IMG/VR virus record: IMGVR_UViG_3300032046_000014
Span: 1 to 64,000 of that record
Strand: one strand, 5' to 3'
Length of the DNA: 64,000 nucleotides
Source: a virus
Under the pieces are notes generated by a model that worked only from the letters and a program-made list of their open reading frames with translations, ran no database searches and was not told where the DNA came from. Shown one piece after another: positions 7,027 to 59,969 of the stretch. Made by a program: the position numbers and the translations under genes. The number at the start of each line of letters is the position of its first letter. Position 1 is the first letter of the stretch.

Positions 7027-9690
7027 TCATCTTTCCTTCGTGCTGACTACGCCGGTAATGAGGGCACCTGTTACTCCAAGCGTAGATAGTTCTGTATATT
7101 TGAGTCTTTTCACACAGCTGAAACTGCTCGAGAGATCTTTCCAGGTTTGATACACGTAGAACTTTTCAGAAAGGTCAGCTGAACCTATCTTGCGTATGAT
7201 GAAGCTGGACTGTAATTCATTGCTGGCCGAAACCCTCAGTGTGAATGAGCAGGACAAGTTACGGCTGCCAATCTTTGTAATAGTGATGCTTGCGGACAGG
7301 TTGATACTACTACTCTTTTCAACAGTGAGACTGCTGGACAGGTCCTTCGAGGCCGACTTTCGCATTGTAACGCTGCAACTTTGAAGAGCACTGCTGGCTT
7401 TGCGTATAATCACATTACAGGATAGCCATGTGGATGCTGTCTTGCGAAGAGTAAAGCTGGACGATAATGCTCTAGCTGCAGTTCTCTGTATGGCAAAGGA
7501 TGAGGAAACATCTGCAGCTGTAGTTTTCCGAACGGTGAAACTCGCGGCAATCGCAGTTGAAGTAGTCTTTCTAACTGTAAAAGAACTTGTCAGATCGCGG
7601 GAAGCTGCTTTCCTGACTGTGAACGAAGATGCAAGCTGAGTATATGTTATTTTGCGCAGAGTGATTGAAGTTGCTAGGTCTTTGACTGCTGTCTTTCGAA
7701 CAGTGAAGCTGGCTGATACTGGTTTGCTGTTGGCCTTTCTGATAGTAATCGAACTGGACAGATTTGTGGATGTTGATTTGCGAATTGTAATTGAAGAAGA
7801 AAGCTTCTTTGATAGGATAACATGTAGACTAGCTGAAAGAGCAGCGGCACCTGTCTTCCTGATTGTGAAAGATGATGACAGATAGCCGACGCTTGGAAAC
7901 ATCACATAGAAGGATGATGATAGATCTCTAGTTGCAGCCTTTCTGACTGTAACGCTGGAACTAAGGGCTTTAGACCCTGATTTTCGGATAGTGACTGATG
8001 AGGACAGTATTCTGGATGATACATTCCTAACTGTGACTGAGCACGATAATGCTTTGGACGCGACTTTGCGCACGCTGAAGGATGAGGATAACGCCTTAGA
8101 GGTTGCCTTTCTAACGACCATGCTGCTTGACAGGGCTTTCGAAGAAGCCTTCCGGACTGTGACACTGGAGCTGAGTATTTTGGAAGACGATTTGCATATG
8201 ATGAATGAGCTGCTTAAAACTGTAGAACTCTTATTCCGTACAGCAAACTCTTCTGACAGATCCTTAGAGCCTATGTTGCGGACGGTGATACTGCATGATA
8301 ATTGTTTAGAAGCGGCTTTTCTGATTGTGAAGCTGGAACTCAATAGTTTGGAAGAACCCTTCTGTATAATGACGGATGAACTAAGAGCTTTAGACCCGAG
8401 ATTTCTAATCGTGATGCTACACGATAGCGGTTTCGAGCTGGCCTTGCATATGGTGAAAGAGGAACTCAAAGCTTTGATTGCGGATTTGCGTACCGTGAAG
8501 GACTGGGTAGATGATGCTTTGGAGGCTGCCTTGCGCACAATCACGGAAGAAGACAGAGCCTTTGATGATTCCCTGCGTATGGTGAAGCTGGACGAAAGCG
8601 GGTTTGTTGCAGATTTGCGAATTGTGAATGAGCCTGAAGCTGCTTTAGATCCTATATTTCTGACAGTGATTGAGGCTGACAGCGTCTTAGAACTGGCCTT
8701 TCGGATTGTGAATGAGGACAAGATTATGTTGCTGGCTGACTTTCTACAGATGAAGCTACATGACAATGCTTTAGACGTGGACTTCCGGATGGTGAATGAA
8801 CTGCTCAGGTTTTGAGAGGCTGATTTTCTAAGAGTGACAGAGGAGGTCAGCGCATTGCTTGCCGATTTTCTTATGGTGAAGTTAGATTGCAGAATTACTG
8901 AAGCAGCTTTTCGAATCGTGAAGCTGGCCCGCAACTTAGCGGAAAGAGTAACATGGAACGACGAGGACAAGTCTTTAGAAGCTGCTTTGCATATCGTGAA
9001 GGAACTGGAGAGCGTTTTGGAACTGCTCTTCCGGACGGTAATGGAGGACGAAACTGTCTTGGTCGCAGTCTTTCTGATTGTAAAACTGGAATTGATTATT
9101 TGAGAGTCTGACTTCTGAATAGTGATTGATGAAGACAGTGTTTTGGAAGATGCTTTGCGAATTATGAAGCTGGATGACAGGGCTTTTGAACTGCTTTTGC
9201 GAATGGTAAAACTGGAACTCAGCGCTTTTGAAGCAGACTTCCTAATTGTCCAAGAGGAAGACAGGGGGTTGGAAGCAGCTTTCCTACAGGTGAAGCTGCT
9301 GGAGAGAGCCTTGCTGCTAGATTTGCGAATTGTAAAGGAGCTGGAGAGCGCTTCAGAAGCTGCCTTTCGAATAGTGAAGCTGGATGATAACGATTTTGAA
9401 GAAGCTTTCCGAATGGTGAGGCTTGAAGATAATGGCTTGGCTGCTATTTTCCGTATGGTGAAACTACTTGACAGTTTACGTGAGAGTGAAACATGAACGG
9501 ACGATGATAGGTCTTTTGAATTTGCCTTACGAATAATCAGATTGGTGGAAAGATCTGCACTGCCAAATTTGCGGATCGTAACACTGCTGGCTAATGATTG
9601 AGCAGCGGTTCTTCTAATTGCAAAGCTAGAGGATAATTGCTTATAGGCTTTTGGTACAAGAGCAAGGCTCTGCGCAATAATAAGAGGCAC
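7027..9690 (-). CDS. 887-aa Ser/Lys/Arg-rich 14-aa tandem repeat protein (putative virion fibre)
   Basis: about 60 units of the type SKALSSSFTIRKSS. Confidence 0.8.
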   Translation of the reverse strand: MPLIIAQSLALVPKAYKQLSSSFAIRRTAAQSLASSVTIRKFGSADLSTNLIIRKANSKDLSSSVHVSLSRKLSSSFTIRKIAAKPLSSSLTIRKASSKSLSSSFTIRKAASEALSSSFTIRKSSSKALSSSFTCRKAASNPLSSSWTIRKSASKALSSSFTIRKSSSKALSSSFIIRKASSKTLSSSITIQKSDSQIINSSFTIRKTATKTVSSSITVRKSSSKTLSSSFTICKAASKDLSSSFHVTLSAKLRASFTIRKAASVILQSNFTIRKSASNALTSSVTLRKSASQNLSSSFTIRKSTSKALSCSFICRKSASNIILSSFTIRKASSKTLSASITVRNIGSKAASGSFTIRKSATNPLSSSFTIRRESSKALSSSVIVRKAASKASSTQSFTVRKSAIKALSSSFTICKASSKPLSCSITIRNLGSKALSSSVIIQKGSSKLLSSSFTIRKAASKQLSCSITVRNIGSKDLSEEFAVRNKSSTVLSSSFIICKSSSKILSSSVTVRKASSKALSSSMVVRKATSKALSSSFSVRKVASKALSCSVTVRNVSSRILSSSVTIRKSGSKALSSSVTVRKAATRDLSSSFYVMFPSVGYLSSSFTIRKTGAAALSASLHVILSKKLSSSITIRKSTSTNLSSSITIRKANSKPVSASFTVRKTAVKDLATSITLRKITYTQLASSFTVRKAASRDLTSSFTVRKTTSTAIAASFTVRKTTAADVSSSFAIQRTAARALSSSFTLRKTASTWLSCNVIIRKASSALQSCSVTMRKSASKDLSSSLTVEKSSSINLSASITITKIGSRNLSCSFTLRVSASNELQSSFIIRKIGSADLSEKFYVYQTWKDLSSSFSCVKRLKYTELSTLGVTGALITGVVSTKER

Positions 9691-45246: not shown

Positions 45247-46461
45247 CTACTCCTTCAAGTCTCTTATTTTGCCTTGGACATTGAAACGAGTGCAGATTAT
45301 GTCTCCCATGGTCCTGTACAGGCCCTTGTCTCCGATGAAGTTGATTGCGAATGGGTTGCCGGTGCTGATGCCTGCCTCGAAGTATTGTGTTGGTTTTGCG
45401 ACTTTGAAGAGCAAGTAGTCTGTGTCTAGGAAGTAGAGTCTGCTGAGTCCAGCTGGCGTTGCGCTTGGTTGGTCTTGCAGGTTGTTCTTGGTCGGAAGTA
45501 TGGGTACTCCGTTGTAGGTTGCAACGATGAATCCGGCTGCGATGCCTTCAATTCCTCTGACTCCGCCGTAGGTTGGGACAACAGTCTTGTATTCGACGAA
45601 TCTCTGTTGCGCCTGGAGCAGTCTCTGGACTGCTTTGAGTGTGTCGTATCCGGTTTGGATTATCTTGGGGGTTCCGCCTGCCTTCCAGATCTGTCGGAAT
45701 ATATCGTCCAAAAGGTCTAGTGTGAGGCTTCTCAGGCTGCCTTTGGTTGCGTGGTAGCTGATGATGGCGTCTGCCCAGCTGTAGTTTGTGGCGTCTGACC
45801 TGTCTATTGTGGTTCCGTTCACGTACACGTCGTTGCTGACTACGTCTGGTGTGGTGGAGCCATCGGCCATGAAGCAGGTTCCATCTGATTCAACTTTTGC
45901 TGAAACAAGTCTGTCAATTGTTTGGATGTCATTGCCTTCTTGGACTGCTGTAGAGGCAACTCCTTCAGCGTTGAGCATGATGTTGATGTGTTCTGCGTGG
46001 TGCAGGCCCATGTATTCTCTCATCTGGCGCATGACATCGCCGAGTGAGTCGTCGATTCCACCCAAGTATTGTATCATTTCAGCTACGTTGAACGTGTGGC
46101 CCACGATTTTTGGTTTGCTGTAGAGCTGTTTCCATGTTGGCTTTGTCGTGTCTGGCAATGCAGATCCTTCAGCAAGCCCGCCTGGAGCTACTGTGTATGA
46201 CCCAACGGGTGGCACTGGAGCTCTTGCGGTTAGGACACGGAAGCCACTGTGGTCCCATACTGCTTTGGGCAGAAAAGCAAAAGTGTTGGCTTCAAGGTTG
46301 AGTTGTGACCATACTTTAGCGCCGTAGATTGGATTATAGATTCCGCCTTGCGTGGTTAGGATTGGTGCGTCTGCCTTCATTACGTCGGCTACGCCGAGAC
46401 CGTAGTAGTATCGTTCCATATCTTCGAGGGTTTTGATTTCAAATATGCTTCTTCCTGACAT
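45247..46461 (-). CDS. major capsid protein (HK97 fold)
   Basis: follows protease; YGAKVWSQLNLE, GG.AEG..LP, YNGVPI, LYFLDTDY, QGKIRDL. Confidence 0.85.
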   Translation of the reverse strand: MSGRSIFEIKTLEDMERYYYGLGVADVMKADAPILTTQGGIYNPIYGAKVWSQLNLEANTFAFLPKAVWDHSGFRVLTARAPVPPVGSYTVAPGGLAEGSALPDTTKPTWKQLYSKPKIVGHTFNVAEMIQYLGGIDDSLGDVMRQMREYMGLHHAEHINIMLNAEGVASTAVQEGNDIQTIDRLVSAKVESDGTCFMADGSTTPDVVSNDVYVNGTTIDRSDATNYSWADAIISYHATKGSLRSLTLDLLDDIFRQIWKAGGTPKIIQTGYDTLKAVQRLLQAQQRFVEYKTVVPTYGGVRGIEGIAAGFIVATYNGVPILPTKNNLQDQPSATPAGLSRLYFLDTDYLLFKVAKPTQYFEAGISTGNPFAINFIGDKGLYRTMGDIICTRFNVQGKIRDLKE

Positions 46462-46463
46462 GC

Positions 46464-48470
46464 TTATGCACTCTCCCGTAAGCGCGCTGCGCGCTGTTGA
46501 TCACTCATGTCATGGACTTTAGTCCATGGCAGCTCATGCAATGTCTGCAAGGTCAATGGTTGGCCGGGTGCAGCTGCACCTGGAGTTCCGGGCGTTTCCG
46601 GTGCGTTGTCGCCTGTGAATGCAGACTTTCTAACTGTTGCGCTTTGGCTCTTCAGAATATCAGCGGTTTTCTTGGCGATGCCATCAACATCGACGGCAGT
46701 GGCGCTCTTCTGTAAGGTTGCTACTGCTTTCGTTAGTTCAGCAACGGCTTTTCCGATGTCTGCGATTCTTTGAGAATCGCTCTTTTTGCGATGTTCCTCA
46801 ATGTATCGTTTCAAGCCTGGAGGCATTTTGCCTTTTGCTTCAAGTCCCTCGAGAGTGGAGATGACTTCTGGGTCGTTGAGCATTTTCTCGTCTTCAGGAG
46901 GATATGGTAATTTGGTTTTGTCCTTGCCAGCAGCATCCTTAGCATCCTCGTCTTCTTCGTCCTCTTCCTCTCCTGGTTTCGCAGCAGCCTTTGCGGCGCC
47001 TTCTTTCTCGCCTGGCGGTGGATATTTGCCTGCCTTACAGCCAGCATCTTTGACTGCACCTTCCTTCGCTGCACCCTCTTTCTCGGGTTTCTCTTCATCC
47101 TCTGGTTTTGCAGCTTCTTTCTCTGGCTTTTCCTCTTCACCTGGCTTTACTTCAGCTTTGACTGCTCCCTCTTTTCCTTCAGAGGGCAGCATTGCTTCGA
47201 GCTCCTTGATTTTGGAGCGCATGGTCGCTATGTTCGGTCCCGTTGCAGAAGTTCCTGTTACTCCGCCTGTGTTTGGTCCTGTTCCAGTTCCTACGATTCC
47301 TGGTGTTCCAATTGTTTTTTCTACTTTGTCGGACATTTTTGAGTCCTCAGTGGTTGATGTTCGACCTTCTATGTTTTTAAGTGTTATGTTTGACTGAGCG
47401 CTAGACGGTTCGCCTGACTGTGACGTTTCTGCCTTTATCATGTCAACCCTACCGAGACTATCGCAAGGCACGAGTGCAAGATCAAATAGGGGCCTATAAG
47501 CATCATGAGGCCCTCCTTCGTCGCCGAAGATGAATTCAAGTTTGTCCCAGAGCTCATTAGGCAATGCTTTGAGGATTCGTGTCTCAATATGTCTCCGCAT
47601 AGGATTGTCAGTATCCATTTTTATGAGCAAGTCAAAGTCGTTGCCTTCTCCTTTCTCCACACTGCTTCCGACTTGGCACACGAATTCTTTGCGGATGATG
47701 AGGCTTTTGCCCATGAGGTTCGGCAGAAAAGACAGCTCCTTCACGAGTTTCTCGCTGTTCTTCAGTTCTGCGCTTTTCTGCAGGAACATTTCTTCCGTGA
47801 TGAGCCCATGGTCCAAGTAACTTTTGAGAACCTGGAACCCGCTCTCCGTGTTCTTGCCACGCTTGCAAACCGTAATCTCGTAAAGTTCAAGATCATCAAT
47901 CTTCCAGAACGCGCCCGAACGTGCCTGCGCTACAAGAGTTTTTCCGCCGAGAGCCCGTCCGCCAATGCTGAAAGCGTTAAGTTCGCCCTTGTTAGCCATT
48001 TCCCAGACTTTGTCAGCGATTTCTATATCATCGCGTAATTCAGCGACCACATAGAGGCCCTTATCGTCGACGTGGCTCCAGTATTTCTTGCCTTCTGAAT
48101 CTTCAACGGTTTCTTTGAGAAGGATTTTGCCGATGGTAATGTTGCTGTGTTCCAGGTTGATGTTAGCGTATTTTTCGCCGGCTGCCTTCATTCTGTCCCA
48201 TGCTTTCTGCAAGGCGGGGATGGTGACAAGTTCGTTTTGTTTGTCGATAACTTCGACACTGGCGTAACCGTGGATGATTCTGCGTTTGCCGTCTTTCAGA
48301 AGTAATCCTGCGGCTGGAATATCGAATCGTATGTAGGCGGGGACGGGGGAGTCAACAAGCTCTTTCAGCAGAAGTTCGGTGATGGGATGTTCAAGGACCT
48401 GGCGTGCCATTGGGTCTCCGGCTAATGCGCTTTTCTCAAGCTCAGCCAAAAGTGTTGCAGCATTTGGCAT
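46464..48470 (-). CDS. HK97-type prohead protease fused to NTase-like domain and scaffold
   Basis: GYASVEVIDKQNE, EHSN, AFSIGG, LYEITVC..GKN; acidic low-complexity C-terminus. Confidence 0.85.
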   Translation of the reverse strand: MPNAATLLAELEKSALAGDPMARQVLEHPITELLLKELVDSPVPAYIRFDIPAAGLLLKDGKRRIIHGYASVEVIDKQNELVTIPALQKAWDRMKAAGEKYANINLEHSNITIGKILLKETVEDSEGKKYWSHVDDKGLYVVAELRDDIEIADKVWEMANKGELNAFSIGGRALGGKTLVAQARSGAFWKIDDLELYEITVCKRGKNTESGFQVLKSYLDHGLITEEMFLQKSAELKNSEKLVKELSFLPNLMGKSLIIRKEFVCQVGSSVEKGEGNDFDLLIKMDTDNPMRRHIETRILKALPNELWDKLEFIFGDEGGPHDAYRPLFDLALVPCDSLGRVDMIKAETSQSGEPSSAQSNITLKNIEGRTSTTEDSKMSDKVEKTIGTPGIVGTGTGPNTGGVTGTSATGPNIATMRSKIKELEAMLPSEGKEGAVKAEVKPGEEEKPEKEAAKPEDEEKPEKEGAAKEGAVKDAGCKAGKYPPPGEKEGAAKAAAKPGEEEDEEDEDAKDAAGKDKTKLPYPPEDEKMLNDPEVISTLEGLEAKGKMPPGLKRYIEEHRKKSDSQRIADIGKAVAELTKAVATLQKSATAVDVDGIAKKTADILKSQSATVRKSAFTGDNAPETPGTPGAAAPGQPLTLQTLHELPWTKVHDMSDQQRAARLRESA

Positions 48471-48570: not shown

Positions 48571-48981
48571 ATGAAAGATGTTATCGGCATATTAGTTTGC
48601 AACAGCCAGAAAGTGCTTGACCATAAATTGAAGGATGGTAAAAAGAGCGAACATTGCTATTGTTTTTGGAACATGACTCGTTTTCCTCGACGAATTCTCC
48701 AGCGCGTATTTCCTGAATCTATAGGTGCAGTTTCTGAAGCAGCAAAAGCGCCTGGCTTCGGATGGTATGCTGAAGATGATATAGGGGTTCCAGAGGATTT
48801 TGAGGTTCACCTTTACTTCGCAGTGAAGGGGCAAGTGCTGGGCTATTTTGTTTGTAAGGCAATGGGAGAACGGCATAGAACGCAGGAATTAAGATTTCAC
48901 AGTGAATCATGGACTCCGATAAAACCAGTAACTATCAAGCCGAGCCAGGGATTCCGATACTTCAAGCATGACTTAGACTAG
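48571..48981 (+). CDS. hypothetical (PUA/ASCH-like) protein
   Basis: LYFAVKGQVLGYF...QGFRYF. Confidence 0.55.
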   Translation: MKDVIGILVCNSQKVLDHKLKDGKKSEHCYCFWNMTRFPRRILQRVFPESIGAVSEAAKAPGFGWYAEDDIGVPEDFEVHLYFAVKGQVLGYFVCKAMGERHRTQELRFHSESWTPIKPVTIKPSQGFRYFKHDLD

Positions 48982-49010: not shown

Positions 49011-49541
49011 GTGAAAAATACGGAACGTAAACTGAAATATCACTTGTTCCCTGAGCAAATCGTAAACTATGTTTGGCAAGGAAAGCAGTGTTCAGTACAA
49101 GGTATTCATAAAGCCCTAGATATGGAATATGATAAAGAACACAAAACTTGGCTCAGATTTGAACAAAAACCTGACGACAGAGGATACTTCTGGTGGGAGG
49201 AAGCTGATCTTATTGCGATAGTTAAAGGGCAGAGATCATTCTCATGTGACATTTGCCGAAAAACATTTTCGCCAAAGAGAGTAGGCTTTCTTTCTTCCCA
49301 AAGGATAGTCGAACCTGCTTACTATGTTGGGTTACTCGATATGGAGGGTTGTACTCCTCCACCTTGGGGATACACTACTAAAATCTGCTTAGACTGCGCT
49401 TCGGAAATCTTCAAGGATGCCATAGTTTACAAGTGTGATCCAGATTCGGACTGGTGGTGCGGATGGCATTCAGAAGCACCGAAAATAGATAGACCAAAAA
49501 TCAAGCTGATAGACGAATTATTCCCTTTTCTTTGCGGTTAA
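49011..49541 (+). CDS. hypothetical Zn-finger protein
   Basis: CDIC...ICLDC. Confidence 0.55.
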   Translation: MKNTERKLKYHLFPEQIVNYVWQGKQCSVQGIHKALDMEYDKEHKTWLRFEQKPDDRGYFWWEEADLIAIVKGQRSFSCDICRKTFSPKRVGFLSSQRIVEPAYYVGLLDMEGCTPPPWGYTTKICLDCASEIFKDAIVYKCDPDSDWWCGWHSEAPKIDRPKIKLIDELFPFLCG

Positions 49542-49592: not shown

Positions 49593-49880
49593 TCAATTCC
49601 GCAGAGATAGGAGCTGCTGGCGCACCGCCTTATTCCATCTGAGCTGCATAACGGCTCTGATGCTGATTTTCTGCATCTTAGAATTGCCACAGATAGGACA
49701 TTTGTTTCCCCGACCAGTTTTATGGAAAAGAAATGGTATGGCATGACCCTTTTTTGAACTGTCCTCACAAGTACAGCATTTATAGACTGACAGTTTGTCT
49801 TGCATTCGCCGACCTAGAAACTCCGTGGTTTTCGGCGTTTCCCTCTCCATTCCTAAAAACTTCTTCAAACTCATCTTCAT
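49593..49880 (-). CDS. Zn-ribbon protein
   Basis: YKCCTC...KCPICG; ATGA overlap. Confidence 0.55.
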   Translation of the reverse strand: MKMSLKKFLGMERETPKTTEFLGRRMQDKLSVYKCCTCEDSSKKGHAIPFLFHKTGRGNKCPICGNSKMQKISIRAVMQLRWNKAVRQQLLSLRN

Positions 49881-52800
49881 CCCTCTATCGGCTTCTTTTC
49901 TTCTCCTGGGCTTTGGACCGGGGCTTCAGTCTCTCCCGCAAGTCTATAGTGGCCATCATCTTCATGTTTAATTGGGTCCATGGGTTGCTGATCGGATGGT
50001 CGAAAGGCAAGCCATCTAGGGCTGCCAGACGCAAGCTTAAGGAGCCGGAAGATCCATCTGCCCCGGAGGAGTTTTCCATAGAAGAAGTATTCGTGGAGAT
50101 TGTTTCTTTGGACCCCGTACTTGAACGTGCCTTCTTCCAAAATCTCATAGAAACCACACCTGTTTGTTTCAGCTGCAGATCCTTCTCCGCCGAGAAGCAC
50201 TGGTTTACGTAGGCCCTGGACGTCTAGCCAGCCTCTAGGAAACTTTTTGCTGCTCTGTTTAGGAATGGCCGGTTTGGCCGTGGTCATGCCCTTAATGCTG
50301 CCGCTGAAGAATCTCTGAGTTTTCTCCCAAGGATATGTGAGGAAAGTCCAGCCGATCATGCTTTTCGCGTCGCCTGTGTCCTGGCGAGTTTCCCAATGTT
50401 CACGAAAACCGCCCACGCCCTTCCTTATTTCTTCAGGTTCAGAGTCTCCGAATTCGATGTCTGGCTCTTCAGACTTTGCTAAGTCAGGTTTCAATTGTTC
50501 CCAGACGTAACGTTCAGCCGAGCTTGGGTCTCTTGGTGCAGAAATGGCGTCTCCGGGCGGATTGCCGCCTGCGCTGCTAGGCGGAGAACCTGTGATCTTG
50601 ATATCGCCGGCAGTGTCTGGTTCTATTCTTTTCTCCTTGTTGATCTTGGGTCCATATGGAAAATGATGATGGACGATGAATGTGAAAGCTTTTCCATGCA
50701 GCCATTCGGCCCCCTTGTAAAACTGGGCGGGATATGGATTGCCTTCCTTGGTCTCGGGCAGCTGAGGTTCAGCAGCTTTTTTCAGTCCTCCAGGCAATAC
50801 GAAACCATCATGTGCAGCGAGCACTGGCTTGTCATATTCTGCTTCCAACGCAATCTTTGACAAAGCTTCCGGCATATCCTCTTGCTTCACGCCCAAGTGT
50901 CCAACATGGGTAATTATCACTTGGGGCACACCGTTTTTCTTCGCCTGTTTCAGACTATTCAAGATGCTTTGATGCCCATAATCTTCACCATCTTGCTCTC
51001 GAACGATGTCTCGAGTGAGGCTTGCGCCGTCTATGATCCAGGTTTCCACACCGCCAAGCCACTTGTCACTTATTTCTAGGCAGTCGGGACTATAGAGTAC
51101 GATGCCGTTGATGCGGATGGCGAACGTTTGAACCTTCAAGCTGTGTTTAACTGGGAGCCAGCGGACCTTCACGTTTCCGATTCTGATGGCGTTATAGCTG
51201 CTGTAGAAGTGAAGTTCTCGATGACTCAGTTTCTCAGCGTATTCAGGACGCTGCTCACGTATGTCACGCCATATAGAACGGTGCATGTATATGGGCACGT
51301 CTTCAGACAGAAATTCCAGGCCGTCTATATGGTCCGGATGTGCATGAGTGACGCAGACTGCATCAAGGCGTGTTTGAACCTTCTCCGCGAGCTCCTTGCT
51401 TCCGCAGTCAAGCAGAACGTTCGTACCGCTGTTTTCGAATATGGCGCTTGCATTCAACCTTTTATCGGTGCGACACTGCTCATCATCGCAGTCTTTGCGC
51501 GGAAAAGTTTTCTCTCCGCTTGTACCGAGGAACCGGAGATTCCAGGTTGCAAGCTCAACCGCGTCGGCTGCTGCTCCCCGGCTCGGAGTCCATGTTACAG
51601 GACCTTGCCGAGTTGATTCTTCGGGCGGCATCTGTTTTTCCGTCGGGTTAACGGGCGGCTTTTCAGACGAAAGAGGCTTTCCCGTTTTCGGGTCTGCTCT
51701 ATGGCCAGTCCACGGCGGCCATAACTGTTTCTGCAGAGTGTCTATGCGTTCTTTCAGTTTTTCAGGGTCAGTTGCTGAGGCTCTCACGGTGGCGACCCAA
51801 CCGTCTGCTTCTTCATCGACAGAGATTTTGTAGTTGCTGATGCCGATGCTTTCAAACAGGTTTTCTACTTGAGCTTTCCATTGTTGGGCTTTCGCGTATC
51901 CTTCGGGCCCTTTGAAGAAAACATGAGATGTCAATGATGTCTCGTCAGCGCGCATATACTGTAACGGTGTGATTTCATGGAAAGTATTGTCTGCAGGGTC
52001 GGGAACTCTTTCGCCGCCGCCCATTCCAGGAACGCCTATGACCCCACCGGGAGCATAAGTAAATCCGCCATTTGCTTTCGTCAGCTCTTCCTTTTCTAAT
52101 GGTGTGTTATGGTTCATTCCGCGTTTTTCAATTTCTCTGGCGATGGCATCGTGAAGAGCTTTGACCGTTGGCTTATCATGCACTAGAGGTTTGCCGCTTT
52201 GCAGTGTGCTCCACCAAGCATGTGTGATTCTGTGATCATCGAGAAGGACGCGGTCATCAATCTTGGCCGGATCATACGTGTCTACGTCCTTGATTTTTGT
52301 TATGCCAGCTGAACCTTCTGGACCCGTAGAATCTGCGCTGGGCTCGGGCTTCGTTGTCGTAGTCATGATGCCCTGGTCAAGTCTGCCCGGTTCAAACTGC
52401 TGTGAACCGCTGTCAGGATCAGATGCAAACTGTTTCTGAACTTTCTCATCATGCTGTTGAGAATGTTCTTTCCAGTGGACAGGAACTTCACCATCTGTGA
52501 CTTTGTAGACTTTGCAAATGTCCTTCTCATGCGTGTAAGCAGCATCGTATTCGGGATCTTCTTTTTCCCAGGGACCGCCGGGCTCTTGTTTCCATTCTTC
52601 GAAGTCTTTGTCGCAGAACCAAGCGCGGCCCATTCCTTCAGCATAGAGTACGTCGACTGTCGGAGGGTCTTCGCAGCGCATGCATTTTTGGCGATTAGCC
52701 CTTTTTTCTATGTAGTCAGAGGCTTTCTTGAACTGGGTGATTTCTTCAGGTGTAGGAAGCGATCGTCCTGGACTAATCGGCGCCAGCATATGCAGATATC

Positions 52801-54946
52801 CTGCTACGTCATCGGCTTTCTGAAGGGTTTGACTGGCCAATTCTTCAGCTGTATCCAAACCGTCTGGCACATTCTTTTCAGGCTGGTACATGGGAACAGC
52901 ATTCTGGTATGTGTAGTCGTAACTGTTGTTTTTGACGATTTCCAAGCAGCGAACTCGGAGGATATCCCCCTCAGCTGCTTCTACGCCTGAGACGTGCGTG
53001 TGGCCCATGATAAGCCATTTCTTGCCTTTCATTTCTGCAATACGGTTTGCCGGCAGAGTCTTCGCCTGCGCGTCATTGATGGGGCCTATTGCGCCGAGAT
53101 AGCGCCAGCCTTCCTGTTTGCGTTCTTTCTTGACGACGAGGACGTCGATTTCTTTCTGCTTCTTCCATTTTGCCCATCCGAAATTGATGATTCGCTTAGT
53201 ATTCCATTGGCTTTGTGCGTCGAAGAGCATGGCGCCTTCGCTGCCCTTCAGGTTGCCCATGCGTTCAGCTGCTTCTGCGGTTTTACTTGGCGGTACAACG
53301 GTAAACTGTTCAGGTTTTATGATGGGCAGATGCACGGTTCCTTTGAATTCTTTTCTGAGCAGTTTCAGTCTGTCTATCATGGGCATGTCCGCGAGGCTTT
53401 TTCCGTCTAACTCGATGATGTCGAAGATCCATATTCGGAGGTTGCGGCCTTCCTCTACCGGGGCCTCCCCATTCAAGTATCCGATTGCTAATGTCCGGTG
53501 CATCGGCTGACTGTCCGAATACATCATCGCTTGTCCATGGAGGATGAATGATTCGTGGGGCCAATTTTTCAACTCCTCAATAATATGGGGAACACGACTT
53601 GTCTTGTCAAGTCCCCTGCCACTCCAAACTTTTTCTTTGCTCAGCATCATGTCCATGCCGTCAAACTTCTGCTGAACAAGAACATTGGCAAACCTTCTGA
53701 GAAGGGATGGAAGCTTCTTGACGTCATAGTACCGGGTGGCAGGCTTGTTTGCTTTCGGCAATGATGCCTTCGCTATAAGCTGGCCGTCCTCGACAATGAG
53801 GTCGCTTTTGCCGATTTGCTCTGGAGAATGAACGGTTCTGACGGCTTCCTGGTAAGTGGTGGGGTGCATTTCGACTGCTGTTTCTCCGCCGGGCCCTGCA
53901 GATTCGGGAGTTTGTTTTTCTTCGCTGAACATTTCAGCAGCAGCATGGGCTACTCCGACAACATCTCTCCAGTTGTCGCAGAAGTTCACTCCTAAATCGT
54001 CAATGTACATGTCGGCAACGGGCTTGCCTAGTATGAGCTCATCATAAGAAATTCCGTTCTTGTCGAGCCATCCTGCAGTGAGCTCATAGTACCGGGGATC
54101 TCGAGCGGTGTAAATGACGATGTTTGCCAGGTCATTAAGGTCTTTCATGCTTTCCTGCGCGAGAGTTTTCGGTTTTGCTTGTGTATAGCATTCTGGAATC
54201 GGCAGGTTAGTGTCGGTGTCGGCTATTGTGCCATCCAGGTCGACGGCGATTGTGAGGTCTTGAGTGTCGCTTTTCCATTCAGGCGTCGGGAAAAAGACTT
54301 GTACTCCTCGCTGGTACTTGTAGGATTGTGGAGTTTTGAAGCGGTTGAGAATCTTGAGAGTGTAGGCGTAGAGCATGTTGGCGTCGGGCCACCATCGGGT
54401 TCGCTCTTTGTCGCTGATCTTGTGCTGGGGCTGGAGCTTCTTGAACTGCTCGAGCGTAATGGGCTCGATGTCCGTGAATTTGAGAACTCCATAGACATAT
54501 TCATCGTCGGCCCAGTAGAGCGGTTTGTTGAGCATGCCGCTGTAATTGCGGCATTTTACAGTGAGACTTTTTTCGCCGTTCCAGATCATACGTGCATGGG
54601 GCGGGGCAAGATAAACGCTTTTGGCGTTTATTTGTGAAACTGTGCTCTTGAGACTTTGAACAGTGCTTTTGCCCACGGTCACGCCGTCTAGGTCATCGTA
54701 AGTTTTATGGATGAAACCGCGTCTGTCCATTTCTGCTTGGAGCAACCAGTGATAATCAACCAGATCCTCTATCGACCAGCCTGGCACCGCGTCTGGCACA
54801 TCTTTTTTTCTGCACCAGAGCGCGTGACATAAGGCATGGTCAAACAGCAACTGTTGATCAACAAGTTCTCCAGGAACCGACATGGCAGTTAGGCTCTCCG
54901 GCTTAAATCCTCCTTGTTTACCCGCTGTTTCGTAGGGTCTACCCAT
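49877..54946 (-). CDS. 1689-aa polyvalent protein: ASCH, HAD phosphatase, ATP-dependent ligase + OB, Zn finger, metallo-beta-lactamase (RNase Z/PhnP-like), LigD phosphoesterase-like
   Basis: YLAPPHARMIWNGEK; AVDLDGT/YTAR/GKP..DMYIDD; QKFDG/FDIIELDG/SEGAM/WAKWK; FLGTSG/LLDCG/THAHPDH/ITHVGH/AHDG; HHH...HWETR...GRWIF. Confidence 0.8.
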   Translation of the reverse strand: MGRPYETAGKQGGFKPESLTAMSVPGELVDQQLLFDHALCHALWCRKKDVPDAVPGWSIEDLVDYHWLLQAEMDRRGFIHKTYDDLDGVTVGKSTVQSLKSTVSQINAKSVYLAPPHARMIWNGEKSLTVKCRNYSGMLNKPLYWADDEYVYGVLKFTDIEPITLEQFKKLQPQHKISDKERTRWWPDANMLYAYTLKILNRFKTPQSYKYQRGVQVFFPTPEWKSDTQDLTIAVDLDGTIADTDTNLPIPECYTQAKPKTLAQESMKDLNDLANIVIYTARDPRYYELTAGWLDKNGISYDELILGKPVADMYIDDLGVNFCDNWRDVVGVAHAAAEMFSEEKQTPESAGPGGETAVEMHPTTYQEAVRTVHSPEQIGKSDLIVEDGQLIAKASLPKANKPATRYYDVKKLPSLLRRFANVLVQQKFDGMDMMLSKEKVWSGRGLDKTSRVPHIIEELKNWPHESFILHGQAMMYSDSQPMHRTLAIGYLNGEAPVEEGRNLRIWIFDIIELDGKSLADMPMIDRLKLLRKEFKGTVHLPIIKPEQFTVVPPSKTAEAAERMGNLKGSEGAMLFDAQSQWNTKRIINFGWAKWKKQKEIDVLVVKKERKQEGWRYLGAIGPINDAQAKTLPANRIAEMKGKKWLIMGHTHVSGVEAAEGDILRVRCLEIVKNNSYDYTYQNAVPMYQPEKNVPDGLDTAEELASQTLQKADDVAGYLHMLAPISPGRSLPTPEEITQFKKASDYIEKRANRQKCMRCEDPPTVDVLYAEGMGRAWFCDKDFEEWKQEPGGPWEKEDPEYDAAYTHEKDICKVYKVTDGEVPVHWKEHSQQHDEKVQKQFASDPDSGSQQFEPGRLDQGIMTTTTKPEPSADSTGPEGSAGITKIKDVDTYDPAKIDDRVLLDDHRITHAWWSTLQSGKPLVHDKPTVKALHDAIAREIEKRGMNHNTPLEKEELTKANGGFTYAPGGVIGVPGMGGGERVPDPADNTFHEITPLQYMRADETSLTSHVFFKGPEGYAKAQQWKAQVENLFESIGISNYKISVDEEADGWVATVRASATDPEKLKERIDTLQKQLWPPWTGHRADPKTGKPLSSEKPPVNPTEKQMPPEESTRQGPVTWTPSRGAAADAVELATWNLRFLGTSGEKTFPRKDCDDEQCRTDKRLNASAIFENSGTNVLLDCGSKELAEKVQTRLDAVCVTHAHPDHIDGLEFLSEDVPIYMHRSIWRDIREQRPEYAEKLSHRELHFYSSYNAIRIGNVKVRWLPVKHSLKVQTFAIRINGIVLYSPDCLEISDKWLGGVETWIIDGASLTRDIVREQDGEDYGHQSILNSLKQAKKNGVPQVIITHVGHLGVKQEDMPEALSKIALEAEYDKPVLAAHDGFVLPGGLKKAAEPQLPETKEGNPYPAQFYKGAEWLHGKAFTFIVHHHFPYGPKINKEKRIEPDTAGDIKITGSPPSSAGGNPPGDAISAPRDPSSAERYVWEQLKPDLAKSEEPDIEFGDSEPEEIRKGVGGFREHWETRQDTGDAKSMIGWTFLTYPWEKTQRFFSGSIKGMTTAKPAIPKQSSKKFPRGWLDVQGLRKPVLLGGEGSAAETNRCGFYEILEEGTFKYGVQRNNLHEYFFYGKLLRGRWIFRLLKLASGSPRWLAFRPSDQQPMDPIKHEDDGHYRLAGETEAPVQSPGEEKKPIEG

Positions 54947-56871
54947 CTTTTCTTCTTCGGGATTGAAGCGGTCGGGTTCAGGATGCCCGGTGTTGCAGTG
55001 GTGACGGGAGAGTCTTCTTTAGCAAGGATCGGTTCCGTTGTTGTTTCTTGCAGTTTTGGGTTAACGAAGCTTGTTTTCTGGGGGCCATGATACCATTGTT
55101 CTTTATCTTTCCAGAAGGCGCCGCAGAAATCTTCAGGGTCTTTCACCCAGCCTTTAACCCGGACCTTGCAGGCTTCCATGAAAGGATCTATAGAGGAACT
55201 TGACTTCGAAAGCAATATTAGATCATCTATCATGGATTTGTTGTAGTTTTCAGCTTGTTGCCCCGCAGGTTTCGGCGCGAAGCGTCCGGTTCTTTCTCGA
55301 ATTTCGCCGGTGGCTTCAGATTCGATGCCAATTTTCTCGGGCGGTGATGGCGTACTCTTTTTACCTTGTTCTGTAAGTTCTCCTTCTCCAGAAACTTCCA
55401 GTTCCCCTCTTTCGTTGAGGCGAACATCAAAACCTGCTTTCAGCCAAGTGAAGGCAGTGTTTGCTTTGATTTGGCCAATCTCGGTGAGCCGCAGTTCATC
55501 TCGAAGTTCCAGCGTGTTAAACCTGAATTTCCAGTCTGTAATGTTGAAGGCTGGAAACACACGGTTGTTCATTATGTCCTCGCGGTTCTTGTGATGCTCG
55601 CGTATGGCACGGTCTTGGACTGTGACCTGCATCATAGGTGTGGTGCCTGCTTTGCCTGATTCTATGTCGCCTGTGAAGACTGGCTGGGCCGAGTACACGG
55701 CGCCGCAGGCTGCTCTCCAGAACTTGTAGAATTCGATGCTTTGCATGCGTTTGAAGTCTTCCATGACTCGAGTGACTTTGATGGGGTCTTTGCTAGCTAT
55801 CATCATAGTGCGGACTTTCTTGCTTGTCCGGAATCTGCGGAGCACGGGGTCGTAGACTCGTTTGCGCAAGGCTTCCTGCTCAAACTGATCCATGATCTCG
55901 TTGACTTCTTCCTGTTCGTGGCCTGGAAAATTGACGATGCTGCCCAGTTTTCCTTCAGTATAGAGTTCTATGTTGAAGTCATCCATTGCCTGTATGCTGA
56001 GCAGGATTTTCCAGAGGCAGATGATTCTGCTTTCACCATACAAATTCGGTACCCAGCGGTCACTGCTGCCGTGGATAACTTCGTCTTTGGTGAATCTTGC
56101 TTTGACAGCTCCGCCCACACGCTGCACGTATGCTGTTTTCTGCAATGGTTTGCCGCAGACTAGACAGGTAACTGTTGGAGGCGCATAGACAAAATCTGGT
56201 TTCCAGCATTCTGGACAGAAAAGCTGGTTAGGATCTCCGATGTGGCCTTTATCATCGGCAACAACACGGAAGTATCGCGGGTCTTCCACGTTAAGTTCAG
56301 CCGGGATCTTGAGTAGTTCACTGGCTTTCTCGGGTTCGGGGTTGATCACATACTTGTAGCTGATAGTCATGAAATAGTTGTCCAAGCTCAGGTCATACAT
56401 CAGCGTGCTCTTCAAGAGTTCATAGAAGGTGTTTTCCTCATTTGGTTTCGTCAGCAGTTCCAGGGCTCTTTGCTCCTGTTCCGTGTCAGGAGGCACGAGT
56501 GATTCTTTGTCCTTTGGACATTTGTTGTCAGGCGGCGGATCCTTGAATTCCTTCTTGCATTTTGGACATTTGCCGATGAAAGCAGGTTCTAAACGCCAGC
56601 CGGGACTCATGGTTTCACGGATGATTGTGCCGAAAACATTCTTCAAAACCCAGTGAGTGCGCGCGATCAGCATGAGCTCTTCGAAGTTGTAGATAGGCTC
56701 ACGTATCTTGTAGCTAGGTTCCCATATGTATTCCGGAATTACTGTACGGTCAGCTTTGCGGATTTCCTTTTCAAACTCGGTCAACGGCGCAGTTGCCTTG
56801 ACCATTACTTCGGCTTTTTCAACAATGTTTTCCCATGGCATTATTTTTTGCTCCTTTTGATGTTGCTGCAT
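54889..56871 (-). CDS. portal protein with Zn-ribbon insertions
   Basis: LLTKPNEE.TF, DEVIH, LYGES; position after terminase; start may be 56841/56838. Confidence 0.85.
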   Translation of the reverse strand: MQQHQKEQKIMPWENIVEKAEVMVKATAPLTEFEKEIRKADRTVIPEYIWEPSYKIREPIYNFEELMLIARTHWVLKNVFGTIIRETMSPGWRLEPAFIGKCPKCKKEFKDPPPDNKCPKDKESLVPPDTEQEQRALELLTKPNEENTFYELLKSTLMYDLSLDNYFMTISYKYVINPEPEKASELLKIPAELNVEDPRYFRVVADDKGHIGDPNQLFCPECWKPDFVYAPPTVTCLVCGKPLQKTAYVQRVGGAVKARFTKDEVIHGSSDRWVPNLYGESRIICLWKILLSIQAMDDFNIELYTEGKLGSIVNFPGHEQEEVNEIMDQFEQEALRKRVYDPVLRRFRTSKKVRTMMIASKDPIKVTRVMEDFKRMQSIEFYKFWRAACGAVYSAQPVFTGDIESGKAGTTPMMQVTVQDRAIREHHKNREDIMNNRVFPAFNITDWKFRFNTLELRDELRLTEIGQIKANTAFTWLKAGFDVRLNERGELEVSGEGELTEQGKKSTPSPPEKIGIESEATGEIRERTGRFAPKPAGQQAENYNKSMIDDLILLSKSSSSIDPFMEACKVRVKGWVKDPEDFCGAFWKDKEQWYHGPQKTSFVNPKLQETTTEPILAKEDSPVTTATPGILNPTASIPKKKRWVDPTKQRVNKEDLSRRA

Positions 56872-58472: not shown

Positions 58473-59969
58473 TCAAAAGTCTACACTCCTGATAGCCAAT
58501 TTCACAGGCGGCTTCAATATGCTTCGCAGCATGAGCCCACAACTCTTGGGATAGTCATCATGCTTATCGTAGCCTTCCGGCGCGGCCAAATGCAGCATGT
58601 TGCCCTTCCAGAGCATGTTCAGGTCTAGGAATTCTCTGATAAACCTGTCTCGTTGGCGACGCTGGCGTCTGGCAATTGCTTCATTGATACTGGGAAAATC
58701 TATGAGTTTCTTTCTGAAGCAGTTAAGCATGAGTTTGCTTGTGATGTCTTCTTCGCGTATCTCGTTTGTTCGGATGCCCTGGATGTCCAGGCGAGCTCCG
58801 CCGCCGGGCAGATTACGCCATTCTTTGCGGAAGTAATCCAGCACAGGATCTCCGACGCCGGCACTGTCTATGCAGATCTGCCGCGCGCCCAGTTCCAGGC
58901 ATCGTTGAGCTACATGCTGGCTTTGCACTGGATAGTCTGTGCCTTCAAACTCCATCCATTCCAGAATATGGGCCATGTCACCTTCACCATAGCCGAAGGT
59001 GATGACGCTGCGGTCGCTTTGTTTTGCCACATCCCAGCCAGCATAAATGTTGAACACTGGCTTTCCATCAACCATCGGTACTACGAGAGGCTGTTTCCTG
59101 CTCATGTCCTGCAACGTTTCCAGTGTGGTGAATTTGTCAATGCCTAAAGCCCATTGCAGCTCGTACTGAGTTCGGAACCCGATGCTTTCCGGACCCAGTC
59201 TTTCACGTTCATTCTCCACGAATAGAGCGTATCGTTTGTTCCATCGGCTTGCTTCGTGGCAGTCGACACGTGTAATATTGCTGCGGTCTTCCCGTTTGGT
59301 ACAGGCATCATAGAAGTAGCTGTTGATAACCACGTTTTTCGGTGTGCCATCCAAGATGCGCGCTCCACCTACAGCAGCGCTCATGGGGAATACTTCCTGC
59401 GTCATCTTCAACGGGTCCACATCTTCGCTTTGTTCGATGACAATGAGGTTCAATGTTTCGCTGGTTACATTGCTTTTTTCTCCTATGCTTAGGCAGCGGA
59501 TGCGGGCATCAACGTTTTCAGCAATGTTCCGTATAACGAAAAGTTCGCTATATACTGAATCTCCGGTTATTAGTCTAAGGCCAAGCATATCGAGTAACAG
59601 TTTGATCCGCATATATCTGCGTCTGAGACGTTCCTTTACAACCAGGATTGACTGGCTTGCAGCAGGAGCGAACACGCCAATGCGCACGTGCTGCTTCAAA
59701 ATTTTCGTGAAGAAGATGCTGAGCGTGAGGAAGCTTATGCATACCGCCTCTGTTTTGCCACTTTGCCGGCACTGCAGTATGAAGAGTTCTTCTCCTTTCG
59801 CGTTCAAAGTCACACGCATGATGTCATCGCTAACCCTCGTCTCATAAGGGTAAAGTCCTTCTGGCAAGTCTTCTTTGAGAGCGGCGACGATGATCTTTCG
59901 TAATGCACGACAAATATCCAAGGAACTATGACCGTTATTACTGGTTAGAAGTTCCTGGAGTTGATTCAT
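58473..59969 (-). CDS. terL: terminase large subunit
   Basis: CRQSGKT Walker A, LIVIEQ Walker B, GTP, AGWDVAK..D, IDSAGVGD, HDDYP. Confidence 0.9.
   Translation of the reverse strand: MNQLQELLTSNNGHSSLDICRALRKIIVAALKEDLPEGLYPYETRVSDDIMRVTLNAKGEELFILQCRQSGKTEAVCISFLTLSIFFTKILKQHVRIGVFAPAASQSILVVKERLRRRYMRIKLLLDMLGLRLITGDSVYSELFVIRNIAENVDARIRCLSIGEKSNVTSETLNLIVIEQSEDVDPLKMTQEVFPMSAAVGGARILDGTPKNVVINSYFYDACTKREDRSNITRVDCHEASRWNKRYALFVENERERLGPESIGFRTQYELQWALGIDKFTTLETLQDMSRKQPLVVPMVDGKPVFNIYAGWDVAKQSDRSVITFGYGEGDMAHILEWMEFEGTDYPVQSQHVAQRCLELGARQICIDSAGVGDPVLDYFRKEWRNLPGGGARLDIQGIRTNEIREEDITSKLMLNCFRKKLIDFPSINEAIARRQRRQRDRFIREFLDLNMLWKGNMLHLAAPEGYDKHDDYPKSCGLMLRSILKPPVKLAIRSVDF

Follow-up and report, generated by a model that had tools for sequence, protein, structure and literature searches.

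The window, a stretch of 64,000 nucleotides of viral DNA, contains a single genuine open reading frame at positions 49877–54946 of the minus strand, and its product, P0001, joins in one polypeptide a ligase core, a HAD phosphatase, a metallo-beta-lactamase (MBL) domain, a LigD-phosphoesterase (PE) fold, an ASCH-like domain and two small helical modules. P0001 originates from an uncultured archaeal tailed virus and, as one polypeptide with several disparate catalytic domains encoded among virion late genes, is a new variant on the known "polyvalent protein" theme. We propose that it is a polyvalent cargo of the head module that would be loaded into the capsid, processed by the head protease and used to heal and seal viral DNA, a proposal whose chances we regard as evenly balanced. 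The presence in P0001 of the HAD phosphatase, of the ATP-dependent ligase with its OB fold, of the MBL and of the C-terminal LigD-PE fold is strongly supported, that of the ASCH domain and of a zinc finger moderately. An earlier interpretation made from the letters alone (the sequence-only reading) had described one ORF carrying these domains, and each of them was recovered at the place where it had been called. The features are summarized in Table 1.

Table 1. Features of P0001 and of the neighbouring head genes (positions in the window; res, residues of P0001)
Feature	Position	Strand	Remarks
P0001, whole ORF	49877..54946	-	1689 aa; homologues in other metagenomes
DH module 1, res 22-95	54662..54883	-	two-helix; conserved D..L...H...H and E...RG..H
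ASCH-like (PUA-like) domain, res 100-228	54263..54649	-	ESM Atlas, Foldseek; Pfam below cut-off
Small cap-less HAD phosphatase, res 229-340	53927..54262	-	phrog_1238, PDB 1xpj, motifs
ATP-dependent DNA-ligase core (NTase + OB), res 395-705	52832..53764	-	PF01068, profile alignment, motifs
Cys-rich putative zinc-binding module, res 745-840	52427..52714	-	C755, C758, C778, D781
DH module 2, res 885-955	52082..52294	-	paralogue of module 1
Variable middle region, res 956-1135	51542..52081	-	Gly-rich conserved motif
MBL-fold phosphodiesterase or nuclease, PhnP/YhfI/short-RNase-Z-like, res 1136-1390	50777..51541	-	PF12706
LigD-3'-phosphoesterase-fold domain, res 1395-1689	49880..50764	-	predicted model, Foldseek, family profile
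95-aa ORF	49593..49880	-	overlaps P0001 stop codon
Portal protein	54889..56871	-	directly upstream of P0001
Prohead serine protease, Peptidase_S78, long C-terminal extension	46464..48470	-	PF04586, PHROG head maturation protease
Major capsid protein (MCP)	45247..46461	-	isolate relatives are archaeal tailed viruses only

The true start of P0001 is probably M22, at position 54883. The homologues P0003, P0004 and L002 begin at the equivalent methionine, L003 carries an in-frame stop five codons upstream of it, and with this start the 58-nt overlap with the portal gene disappears. Homologues from other metagenomes share 49–93% identity with P0001. The stretch was found in sediment and groundwater, so that damage by sunlight is not an obvious driver; no RNA runs containing it were found.

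The ligase core of P0001 matched PF01068 with 41.8 bits (gathering threshold 26.2) and with 47.2 bits in a six-frame search, and NCBIfam NHEJ-ligase models were among its best matches. Profile positions 403–684 aligned with residues 258–559 of 4eq5, placing an OB fold after the NTase. Motifs I (KFDG, 427–430, with the adenylation lysine K427), IV (SEGAM, 569–573) and V (W-x-K-W-K, 591–595) are invariant in five homologues. Motif III reads H470-G-Q472 in all five members of the subfamily, against D-x-E in most relatives and in a second, canonical ligase encoded in the same record (G000:C1:81094-81663, 88 bits). These data bear out a KFDG ligase with an OB fold and a degenerate HGQ motif III, exactly as had been read from the sequence. 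The usual contacts of the Glu of motif III are O2' of the AMP ribose and a water molecule bound to metal (PMC6698739). In the homologue P0002, inteins are inserted at ligase motif V and in DH module 2, the latter between its two conserved His, an indication that both are conserved core sites.

The C-terminal domain was modelled with a pLDDT of 81.8, and the seven top Foldseek matches of the model were all LigD PE domains (E 4e-6 to 2e-2). VIA Z scores against six LigD-PE entries were 11.3, 10.5, 9.5, 9.3, 8.2 and 8.1, the next match scoring 2.2, and the family profile matched 3p4h, 2lj6, 3n9b and 3p43 at about 1e-3. P0001 itself had no match to PF13298 at E<=10 or, in a second search, at E<=1; seven of 55 relatives match this model (best 1e-16), and the homology of P0001 to it is transitive. 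Between H1428, the first His, and H1517-x-E1519-x-R1521 lies a structured insert some 85 residues long, in agreement with the LigD-PE-like domain with a long loop insertion that had been described earlier. The metal site of Pae LigD is formed by H42, H48, D50 and R52 (His-His-Asp plus Arg). H1428, H1517 and R1521 are kept in P0001, and Glu1519 stands in place of Asp50; across the family the corresponding columns contain His in 139/141, Asp in 135 plus Glu in 7, and Arg in 141/143. In an HMM alignment of low confidence, His84 and Tyr88 of LigD are replaced by F1569 and W1573, and in the same alignment the family column for His84 holds Q55/E36/H19 and the Trp is near-invariant. Because these equivalents are absent in that low-confidence alignment, the domain appears to be a viral lineage that has diverged within this fold rather than a member of the LigD PE domains.

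The HAD domain matched phrog_1238 at 9e-18 and phrog_415/505, the phosphatase part of "polynucleotide kinase", at about 3e-5. Its motif I (DLDGT, residues 236–240) lies at 54227–54241, where a HAD had been called from this motif, and the acidic pair of motif IV is D316-D317, with D317 invariant among homologues. The MBL call was also borne out: the domain scored 66.7 bits against PF12706 (cut-off 27), its HxHxDH motif occupies residues 1201–1206, and H1201, H1203, D1205, H1206, H1268, D1306 and H1347 are invariant. Further matches were to NCBIfam PhnP and RNase Z and to PDB 6kns, 1zkp and 6b9v. An assignment of the MBL to Apyc1 (PF23023) was rejected (13.6 bits, cut-off 50, model positions 17–72 only).

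Support for the ASCH-like region and the zinc finger is moderate. ASCH clusters were the top ESM Atlas matches to residues 100–228 (0.93), and Foldseek returned 2dp9, ZmASCH and YqfB from a low-confidence model (pLDDT 47.6); the Pfam model PF04266 was matched below its cut-off (E 0.1, 13.7 bits, cut-off 21.2). The putative zinc finger corresponds to the cluster Cys755/758/778. Residue 781, an Asp in P0001, is His in P0003 and P0005, the module is missing in P0004, and its sole database match was a weak one to DUF6797 (17.3 bits, cut-off 24.9). In homologues, DUF6011, DUF5661 or a second MBL takes the place of residues 956–1135 or is added to them.

The two DH...H repeats noticed in the sequence proved to be true paralogues, with a BLASTP E value of 3e-5 between them and family HMMs that cross-match at 6e-16. 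Module 1 reached 22.9 bits against Pfam Pyr_excise (PF03013, cut-off 23), over model positions 51–77 only, and matched TIGR02328 with an E value of 0.0025; the similarity of the DH modules to T4 endonuclease V thus appears only borderline. Identity with that enzyme was not supported: hhalign against T4 DenV gave an E value of about 0.03 and a probability below 2%, and in the local alignment the catalytic Glu23 faces a Leu of the DH module. A PDB search with the DH module gave no match.

Misaligned catalytic residues had been named in the sequence-only reading as evidence that would count against it. The residues do depart in part from the canonical sets (HGQ in the ligase; Glu for Asp and, by alignment, no His84/Tyr88 in the PE domain), so that either enzyme could be altered or inactive, while the domain calls stand. 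P0001 could accordingly be a pseudo-enzyme cargo, whose non-catalytic ligase and PE domains bind nicks or ends of the genome, packaged or ejected, and either shield them from host exonucleases or anchor the DNA ends in the head. The non-canonical residues are indeed invariant in the five-member subfamily, whose relatives keep D-x-E and H-x-D-x-R, and both DH modules, like the zinc cluster, resemble binding modules. We nevertheless consider this unlikely: the ligase retains its adenylation Lys and its motifs I, IV and V, the two His and the Arg of the PE site are kept, the Gln and Glu are conservative replacements, and nothing is missing from the catalytic motifs of the HAD and the MBL.

As claimed earlier, the P0001 gene lies between the portal and protease genes, and it is separated from the latter by the 95-aa ORF and two ORFs on the opposite strand. 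The order TerL, portal, P0001 gene, protease, capsid is conserved in L003, a 65%-identical relative. The proposed MuF/minor-head slot holds as regards position but not as regards the domain, since P0001 contains no MuF and PF04233 was found nowhere in the 84-kb record. P0001 is also without a recognised capsid-targeting signal. The protease (29.3 bits against PF04586, cut-off 21) weakly matches an XkdF-type HMM built from fused relatives and is likely the enzyme that processes P0001. The MCP shares 31% identity over 98% of its length with that of HCTV-1/HVTV-1 (Druskaviridae). In HCTV-1, the slot of P0001, which there directly precedes a small ORF, the protease and the MCP, is occupied by the MuF-like gp108 and by gp109, a 1210-aa multidomain "zeta toxin domain" protein; no domains shared between gp108/gp109 and P0001 were detected, and only the slot is common to them.

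The PE-like domain defines a large and mostly uncultured family of 257 representative clusters (membership cut-off, a match to the PE domain at E<=1e-3). Pfam searches on 55 relatives identified the ligase in 21, Peptidase_S78_2 in 11, LigD_N in 7, the MBL in 6, and UDG, MuF and Pyr_excise in 2 each. In an HMM census of 155 proteins, PE was present in 150, the ligase in 88, DH in 71, the XkdF protease in 53, ASCH in 22, the MBL in 19 and UDG in 15. The XkdF-type prohead protease forms the C-terminal end of the 53 proteins that carry it, so that the ligase-PE kit is fused to a prohead protease in about a third of the relatives analysed. P0044, for example, has the architecture DH-ligase-PE-protease followed by a coiled-coil tail, and P0048 is a DH-MuF-PE protein. 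The direct fusion of the ligase kit to the head protease in related viruses suggests that many viruses probably carry a DNA-mending kit in their capsid.

These fusions bear on the possibility that P0001 stays in the cytoplasm as a late repair/maturation polyprotein, acting for instance on concatemers or intermediates of packaging and playing no part in the next host. The gene could merely be co-located with the head genes, and MuF was not found. However, in many relatives the kit is fused to the prohead protease, to the scaffold or to MuF, which would place it physically in their procapsids, and the virus already encodes a separate canonical ligase; an unpackaged enzyme is therefore improbable. 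The idea of a head-packaged P0001 is partly supported, with what we see as real comparative support from gene order, from the protease/MuF fusions, from the HCTV-1 slot and from a shared linker motif.

This motif, hydrophobic-x-K-[S/A], recurs at the inter-domain linkers of P0001 and in the portal, protease-scaffold and capsid proteins. Observed and expected numbers were 7 vs 1.9 in the portal, 12 vs 2.9 in the protease, 3 vs 0.95 in the MCP, 10 vs 4.9 in P0001 and 1 vs 1.1 in TerL. In P0001 the enrichment is modest (P about 0.03, against 0.19 for P0004). The linker sites are conserved across P0001 homologues, and L003 shows the same pattern.

In the capsid-cargo model that we favour, P0001 would enter the procapsid along with the protease/scaffold. 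The S78 protease, presumably with the specificity of HK97, would cut after Lys at the hydrophobic-x-K-[S/A] linkers, at about K93, K393, K710, K957 and K1390, and the resulting enzyme-sized pieces would be kept in the head and exit with the DNA. In the new host, and ahead of viral gene expression, they would remove blocking groups from 3' ends (3'-phosphate, ribonucleotide or other adducts) and close nicks or breaks in the viral DNA as it comes in, the separate canonical ligase of the virus serving for replication. Genome circularisation by sealing of cohesive ends, one of the roles first envisaged for P0001, is unsupported, as terminal repeats are reported for the nearest isolates (PMC4284463).

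A further role envisaged in the sequence-only reading, tRNA or intron processing, lost ground, because no polynucleotide kinase or RtcB was found in P0001 or the record and because relatives add UDG rather than RNA enzymes. An RNA repair kit, healing 2',3'-cyclic-phosphate or 3'-phosphate ends left by host anticodon nucleases, viral ribozymes or BHB-intron splicing and then religating them, is thus decidedly unlikely. It would fit the resemblance of the HAD to the phosphatase part of phage PNK families, T4 Pnkp among them, the PhnP/RNase-Z-like character of the MBL and the frequent association of ASCH domains with RNA; but neither protein nor record contains a 5'-kinase or Rnl, the ligase, which has an OB fold, falls with DNA ligases and LigD, and UDG is a DNA enzyme. 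The T4 repair enzymes Pnkp and Rnl act on RNA and are not known to be packaged. An anti-defence eraser, in which the MBL, perhaps with PE or HAD, degrades cyclic-nucleotide immune signals in the manner of Apyc1 and the ligase is secondary, is very unlikely: PF23023 is named in the precomputed Pfam list and Apyc1 structures are among the weak PDB matches, but the low-scoring match covers the HxHxDH region only, 13/14 control genomes also match the model below its cut-off, and few family members (19/155) carry the MBL.

T4 internal proteins, which are loaded into the prohead as cargo and shortened by its protease, provide a precedent for our favoured model. Virions of African swine fever virus contain base-excision-repair enzymes including a DNA ligase; this virus likewise brings its own DNA-repair and sealing enzymes, but it is a eukaryotic giant virus, the enzymes are separate proteins and there is no evolutionary link to P0001. 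The first minutes of infection are decided by proteins that are packed in the capsid and leave it with the genome; RNA polymerases, anti-restriction factors, toxins and lysins are the kinds known to us to date. If our proposal is true, a ligase carried in the capsid together with end-cleaning modules would extend the ejected functions to DNA repair or sealing and would account for the way in which viruses of slow-growing archaea in sediment handle nicked or damaged genomes or host nucleases.

Polyvalent proteins of phages and conjugative elements were proposed to accompany the DNA when it enters a new host (Iyer, Burroughs, Anand, de Souza, Aravind 2017, PMC5512222). Like them, P0001 is very large, has many unrelated enzymatic domains, is encoded among late virion genes and has relatives fused to MuF. 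Unlike them, its theme is DNA end repair, it has no zincin peptidase, and the recurrent fusion partner in its family is the prohead protease rather than MuF. In its text, PMC5512222 has neither an ATP-dependent DNA ligase nor a LigD-PE, ASCH or metallo-beta-lactamase domain, and it describes its 2H phosphoesterases as never being associated with ligases.

We tentatively suggest that P0001 and its relatives form an undescribed, large class of tailed-virus cargo of at least 250 clusters, prominent in archaeal viruses. Its members would combine a capsid-borne ligase with a LigD-type 3'-end-healing domain, often with UDG, MBL, ASCH or HAD, as an N-terminal extension or neighbour of the prohead protease-scaffold that releases them; these pre-loaded and possibly pre-adenylated enzymes may repair or seal incoming genomes before gene expression. 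A capsid-borne kit of this kind would offer for testing a well-delimited collection of compact ligase and phosphoesterase enzymes that are modular by nature. The fusion to the prohead protease seen across the family is a case in which nature loads a cargo, and it could serve as a model for placing foreign enzymes in capsids. In cultured phages of Lactococcus and Rhizobium, the enzyme N-terminal to the XkdF protease is a DNA methyltransferase; the known XkdF fusions carry methyltransferases, whereas the relatives of P0001 carry the ligase-PE kit.

Bacterial and archaeal LigD of NHEJ likewise pairs an ATP-dependent ligase core with a 3'-end-healing domain of the PE fold. LigD consists of ligase, PE and PrimPol and acts with Ku, whereas P0001 stands in a viral head module and neither PrimPol nor Ku was found in the 84-kb record; the insert, the Glu for Asp50 and the non-conserved His84/Tyr88 further set its PE domain apart. 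The same pair of domains occurs in ANMV-1 (KP703175), a virus of ANME-1 archaea that, like that of P0001, is an archaeal tailed virus from sediment. Its protein AJP62006 matched the family ligase HMM at 5e-77, followed by a PE-like part at 1e-35; it is annotated as "ATP-dependent DNA ligase", the PE part being unannotated in its record. In contrast to P0001, AJP62006 has 866 aa and no HAD, MBL, ASCH or DH modules, and its gene neighbours are a MutT-like gene and a 1166-aa ORF.

The best reading of P0001, whose composition, position and family fusion pattern are established here, is as a capsid-loaded, protease-processed cargo that would mend viral DNA on entry. The protein is encoded by a single ORF (Table). 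With the annotated ATG (54946) as its start, the gene would share 58 nt with the portal gene. In the homologues the first codon corresponds to M22, 5 nt past the portal stop, and in a 65%-identical relative (L003, among the three loci L001-L003 covered) a stop codon in the same frame precedes that start by five codons. Hence, the true start is probably at 54883 (M22), and codons 1-21 of the ORF as listed (54883-54946) are probably untranslated. L003 keeps the order TerL, portal, homologue, protease and MCP without intervening ORFs. The pair of plus-strand ORFs found among the head genes of the window is missing from the equivalent place in L003, which suggests that it is a recent insertion or moron.

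Table. Features discussed in the text. Coordinates are those of the window, except those prefixed G000:C1 (whole 84-kb viral record) or L008 (ANMV-1).
Feature	Coordinates	Strand	Remarks
Large terminase (TerL)	58473-59969	-	
Portal	54889-56871	-	
P0001	49877-54946	-	1689 codons
95-aa ORF	49593-49880	-	
ORF without family match	49011-49541	+	between 95-aa ORF and prohead protease
ORF without family match	48571-48981	+	between 95-aa ORF and prohead protease
Prohead protease	46464-48470	-	668 aa, Peptidase_S78
Major capsid protein (MCP)	45247-46461	-	
Repeat ORF	7027-9690	-	887 aa
Second ATP-dependent DNA ligase	G000:C1:81094-81663	+	stand-alone, canonical; 88 bits; ORF about 351 aa; outside window (L005)
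ANMV-1 ligase	L008 3200-5800		866 aa

Among 50,697 sequenced phage records, the relatives of the MCP are archaeal tailed viruses only: HCTV-1, HVTV-1 and HCTV-5 (31% identity, 98% of length), a Methanofastidiosa virus being also matched. These relatives support an archaeal virus as the source of the window. Several metagenomes from sediment and one from groundwater contain the window DNA, and no RNA run containing it was found among the sequencing runs listed.

Three of the catalytic modules proposed in the sequence-only reading were strongly matched. The HAD phosphatase (residues 229-340; phrog_1238, 9e-18; PDB 1xpj) carries its DLDGT at exactly 236-240; phage "polynucleotide kinase" families match it more weakly, through their phosphatase portion. 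The ATP-dependent ligase, nucleotidyltransferase plus OB (residues 395-705; PF01068, 41.8 bits against a cut-off of 26.2), matches NCBIfam LigB and NHEJ-ligase models as well as archaeal DNA-ligase structures, the OB fold lying within the alignment to 4eq5. The metallo-beta-lactamase (MBL) hydrolase (residues 1136-1390; PF12706, 66.7 bits) has PhnP, YhfI and short-RNase-Z-like proteins as neighbours, and all its metal ligands are invariant. Motifs I, IV and V of the ligase are intact. Motif III, D-x-E in most relatives, is H-G-Q throughout the five-member P0001 subfamily (49-93% identity); the Glu of D-x-E normally touches a metal-bound water and O2' of the AMP ribose (PMC6698739).

The proposed ASCH domain (residues 100-228) and zinc finger held moderately. 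For the former, the Pfam E-value was 0.1 and Atlas gave 0.93 with ASCH clusters; ASCH proteins also lead the Foldseek matches, though from a poor N-terminal AF2 model (pLDDT 47.6), and the N-terminal alignment retrieved no match when used in a word-indexed search. The latter corresponds to a Cys755/Cys758/Cys778 cluster. The two DH modules (residues 22-95 and 885-955) are, as judged from cross-matching family HMMs, real paralogues. Their likeness to pyrimidine-dimer glycosylase is confined to a local stretch and of borderline score (22.9 bits against 23 for P0001; 23.8 for one relative). The hhalign comparison with T4 DenV was not significant, and the catalytic Glu is not aligned. A PDB search with the DH-module profile gave no match and an Atlas search no usable one. 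DH is treated here as a small helical module in its own right, probably for binding.

Single-sequence searches of Pfam and PDB left the C-terminal domain unmatched. With a two-sequence profile, a whole-library HMMER search retrieved 257 representative clusters at E<=1e-3, and 7 of the 55 top relatives matched PF13298 LigD_N (best 1e-16). The only structures matched by a 13-sequence profile were LigD 3'-phosphoesterase (PE) entries (3p4h, 2lj6, 3n9b and 3p43), with which its H-x-D-x-R motif aligns. An AlphaFold model from a 42-sequence alignment (pLDDT 81.8, pTM 0.81) gave LigD-PE entries as the best seven Foldseek matches, and VIA-align Z scores of 11.3 (3p43, rmsd 2.1 Å, 122/124 residues), 10.5, 9.5, 9.3, 8.2 and 8.1, then 2.2. 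The long loop insertion noted earlier in this domain was confirmed: about 85 residues separate the first His (H1428) from H1517-W-E1519-T-R1521. The model is confident over most of the insert, in which there is a long helix; about 15 acidic, disordered residues come next. A comparable insert occurs in a sister subgroup (e.g. P0014). In P0001 a Glu replaces the metal Asp, and a Phe and a Trp align with LigD His84 and Tyr88. Most members of the viral family have Gln or Glu in the "His84" column, with E1619 and R1630 invariant instead. Because of these departures at the metal Asp, His84 and Tyr88, the domain is predicted to belong to a divergent, viral branch of the PE fold rather than to LigD-PE proper. 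A less likely rival reading takes P0001 for a pseudo-enzyme that binds ends; such substitutions, like that of ligase motif III, have to be set against the intact motifs I, IV and V.

The HMM census analysed 155 PE-family proteins and detected PE in 150, ligase in 88, DH in 71 and the XkdF-type prohead protease in 53, followed by ASCH-like (22), MBL (19), UDG (15), zinc (6) and HAD (5) modules. It agrees with Pfam on the scanned subset (e.g. Peptidase_S78_2 in 11/55). The most frequent layout is DH - ligase - (UDG) - PE - protease, which in P0044 runs on into a scaffold-like coiled-coil tail; the family protein P0048 shows DH - MuF - PE. Since the window protease, of the Peptidase_S78 family, gives a weak match to the XkdF HMM made from fused relatives, P0001 followed by this protease looks like a split form of a widespread fusion. 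The full P0001 architecture was found in no isolate (tblastn of P0001, P0006 and P0044 against the 50,697 phage records), and a scan of genome contigs gave just two ligase matches, both distant and in bacterial MAGs.

The HK97 protease cleaves after Lys. The motif hydrophobic-x-K-[S/A] was observed 7 times against 1.9 expected in the portal, 12 against 2.9 in the protease-scaffold, 3 against 0.95 in the MCP and 10 against 4.9 in P0001 (P about 0.03). It is enriched neither in the terminase nor in the pooled remaining window ORFs (26 against about 20, one repeat protein excepted). Conserved sites of P0001 lie at domain boundaries (K93, K380/393/398, K710, K957 and K1390), with a further one (K1491) inside the PE insert. 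Cutting at these motif sites would give, by a residue-span estimate, pieces of about 8 to 48 kDa with one or two modules each. L003 shows the same pattern, the homologue's own count being not significant. A second, less likely rival, P0001 as a late enzyme that is not packaged, has to be weighed against the fusions to prohead protease or MuF in many relatives.

As virion cargo, P0001 would be loaded into the capsid and cleaved by the prohead protease, and its pieces would stay in the head and be ejected with the DNA; on entry, blocked 3' ends would be healed and nicks or breaks in viral DNA sealed. The earlier reading of a head-packaged toolkit had left DNA and RNA ends open. As an RNA repair kit, a further rival, P0001 would be at odds with its DNA-type ligase, with the UDG of its relatives, and with the finding of no 5'-kinase, RtcB or Rnl in P0001 or the 84-kb record; these points favour DNA. 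That record yielded a single P-loop match, a weak one in a different gene. Searches of the record (estimated 78% complete) found no Ku, LigD-PrimPol, MuF or RtcB, and the lack of Ku and PrimPol there argues against classical NHEJ. P0001 is probably not the replicative ligase, because the separate canonical ligase, with a normal D-x-E motif III, fits that role. Circularisation, also proposed earlier, found no support in the form of sealing cohesive ends, the nearest isolates being reported to have terminal repeats (PMC4284463). A signal-eraser role is the weakest rival; the anti-Pycsar enzyme Apyc1 was rejected as an identity for the MBL, which scored 13.6 bits where the cut-off is 50.

Polyvalent, virion-delivered proteins have already been described (PMC5512222); LigD, ASCH and metallo-beta-lactamase domains are absent from that text, in which ligases appear only as never associating with its 2H domains. 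In the literature searched, we found neither a ligase-PE cargo nor its prohead-protease fusion, though reports may exist elsewhere, and no relevant report of LigD-PE or ligase in virions. The main addition is the family and its context; of the results, the pattern seen across the family is the more interesting one. In HCTV-1 the slot corresponding to that of P0001 is occupied by a MuF-like gene together with one for a 1210-aa "zeta toxin domain" protein, which have no domains in common with P0001. In cultured phages (Lactococcus P335-type phages and Rhizobium phage RHph_Y1_11), XkdF proteases are fused to DNA methyltransferases, so that the head protease bears an enzyme in the same way as in the PE-family fusions; the ligase-PE architecture itself occurs in no isolate. 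ANMV-1 (KP703175) is the sole published genome found with ligase and PE; its "ATP-dependent DNA ligase" has an unannotated LigD-PE-like domain at residues 470-691.

The linkers of the family are hot spots of module exchange. Among homologues, the middle region holds a second MBL and DUF6011 in P0004, DUF6011 in P0003, and DUF5661 in P0005, which is without DH1. The 93%-identical P0002 contains two inteins with LAGLIDADG-type inserts, one within ligase motif V and the other between the two conserved His of DH2, and the family protein P0015 has a Hint/intein within PE, so that three core sites of the family carry inteins. Short, strictly conserved motifs stand in the variable or disordered linkers of P0001 at residues 841-855, 960-994 and 1060-1080 (window about 51700-52430). 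They are Asp/Ser/Gly-rich ending in P-G-R, Gly-rich, and Trp/Pro-rich, with invariant columns, and could be docking or targeting peptides.

Elsewhere in the window, the repeat ORF is little more than a tandem array of about 60 units of 14 residues (consensus near SSSFTIRKxSSKxL) and may encode a fibre or beta-solenoid protein. It accounts for the GC-skew peak at 8-10 kb, and its repeats account for its 32 chance-looking Lys-motif matches.
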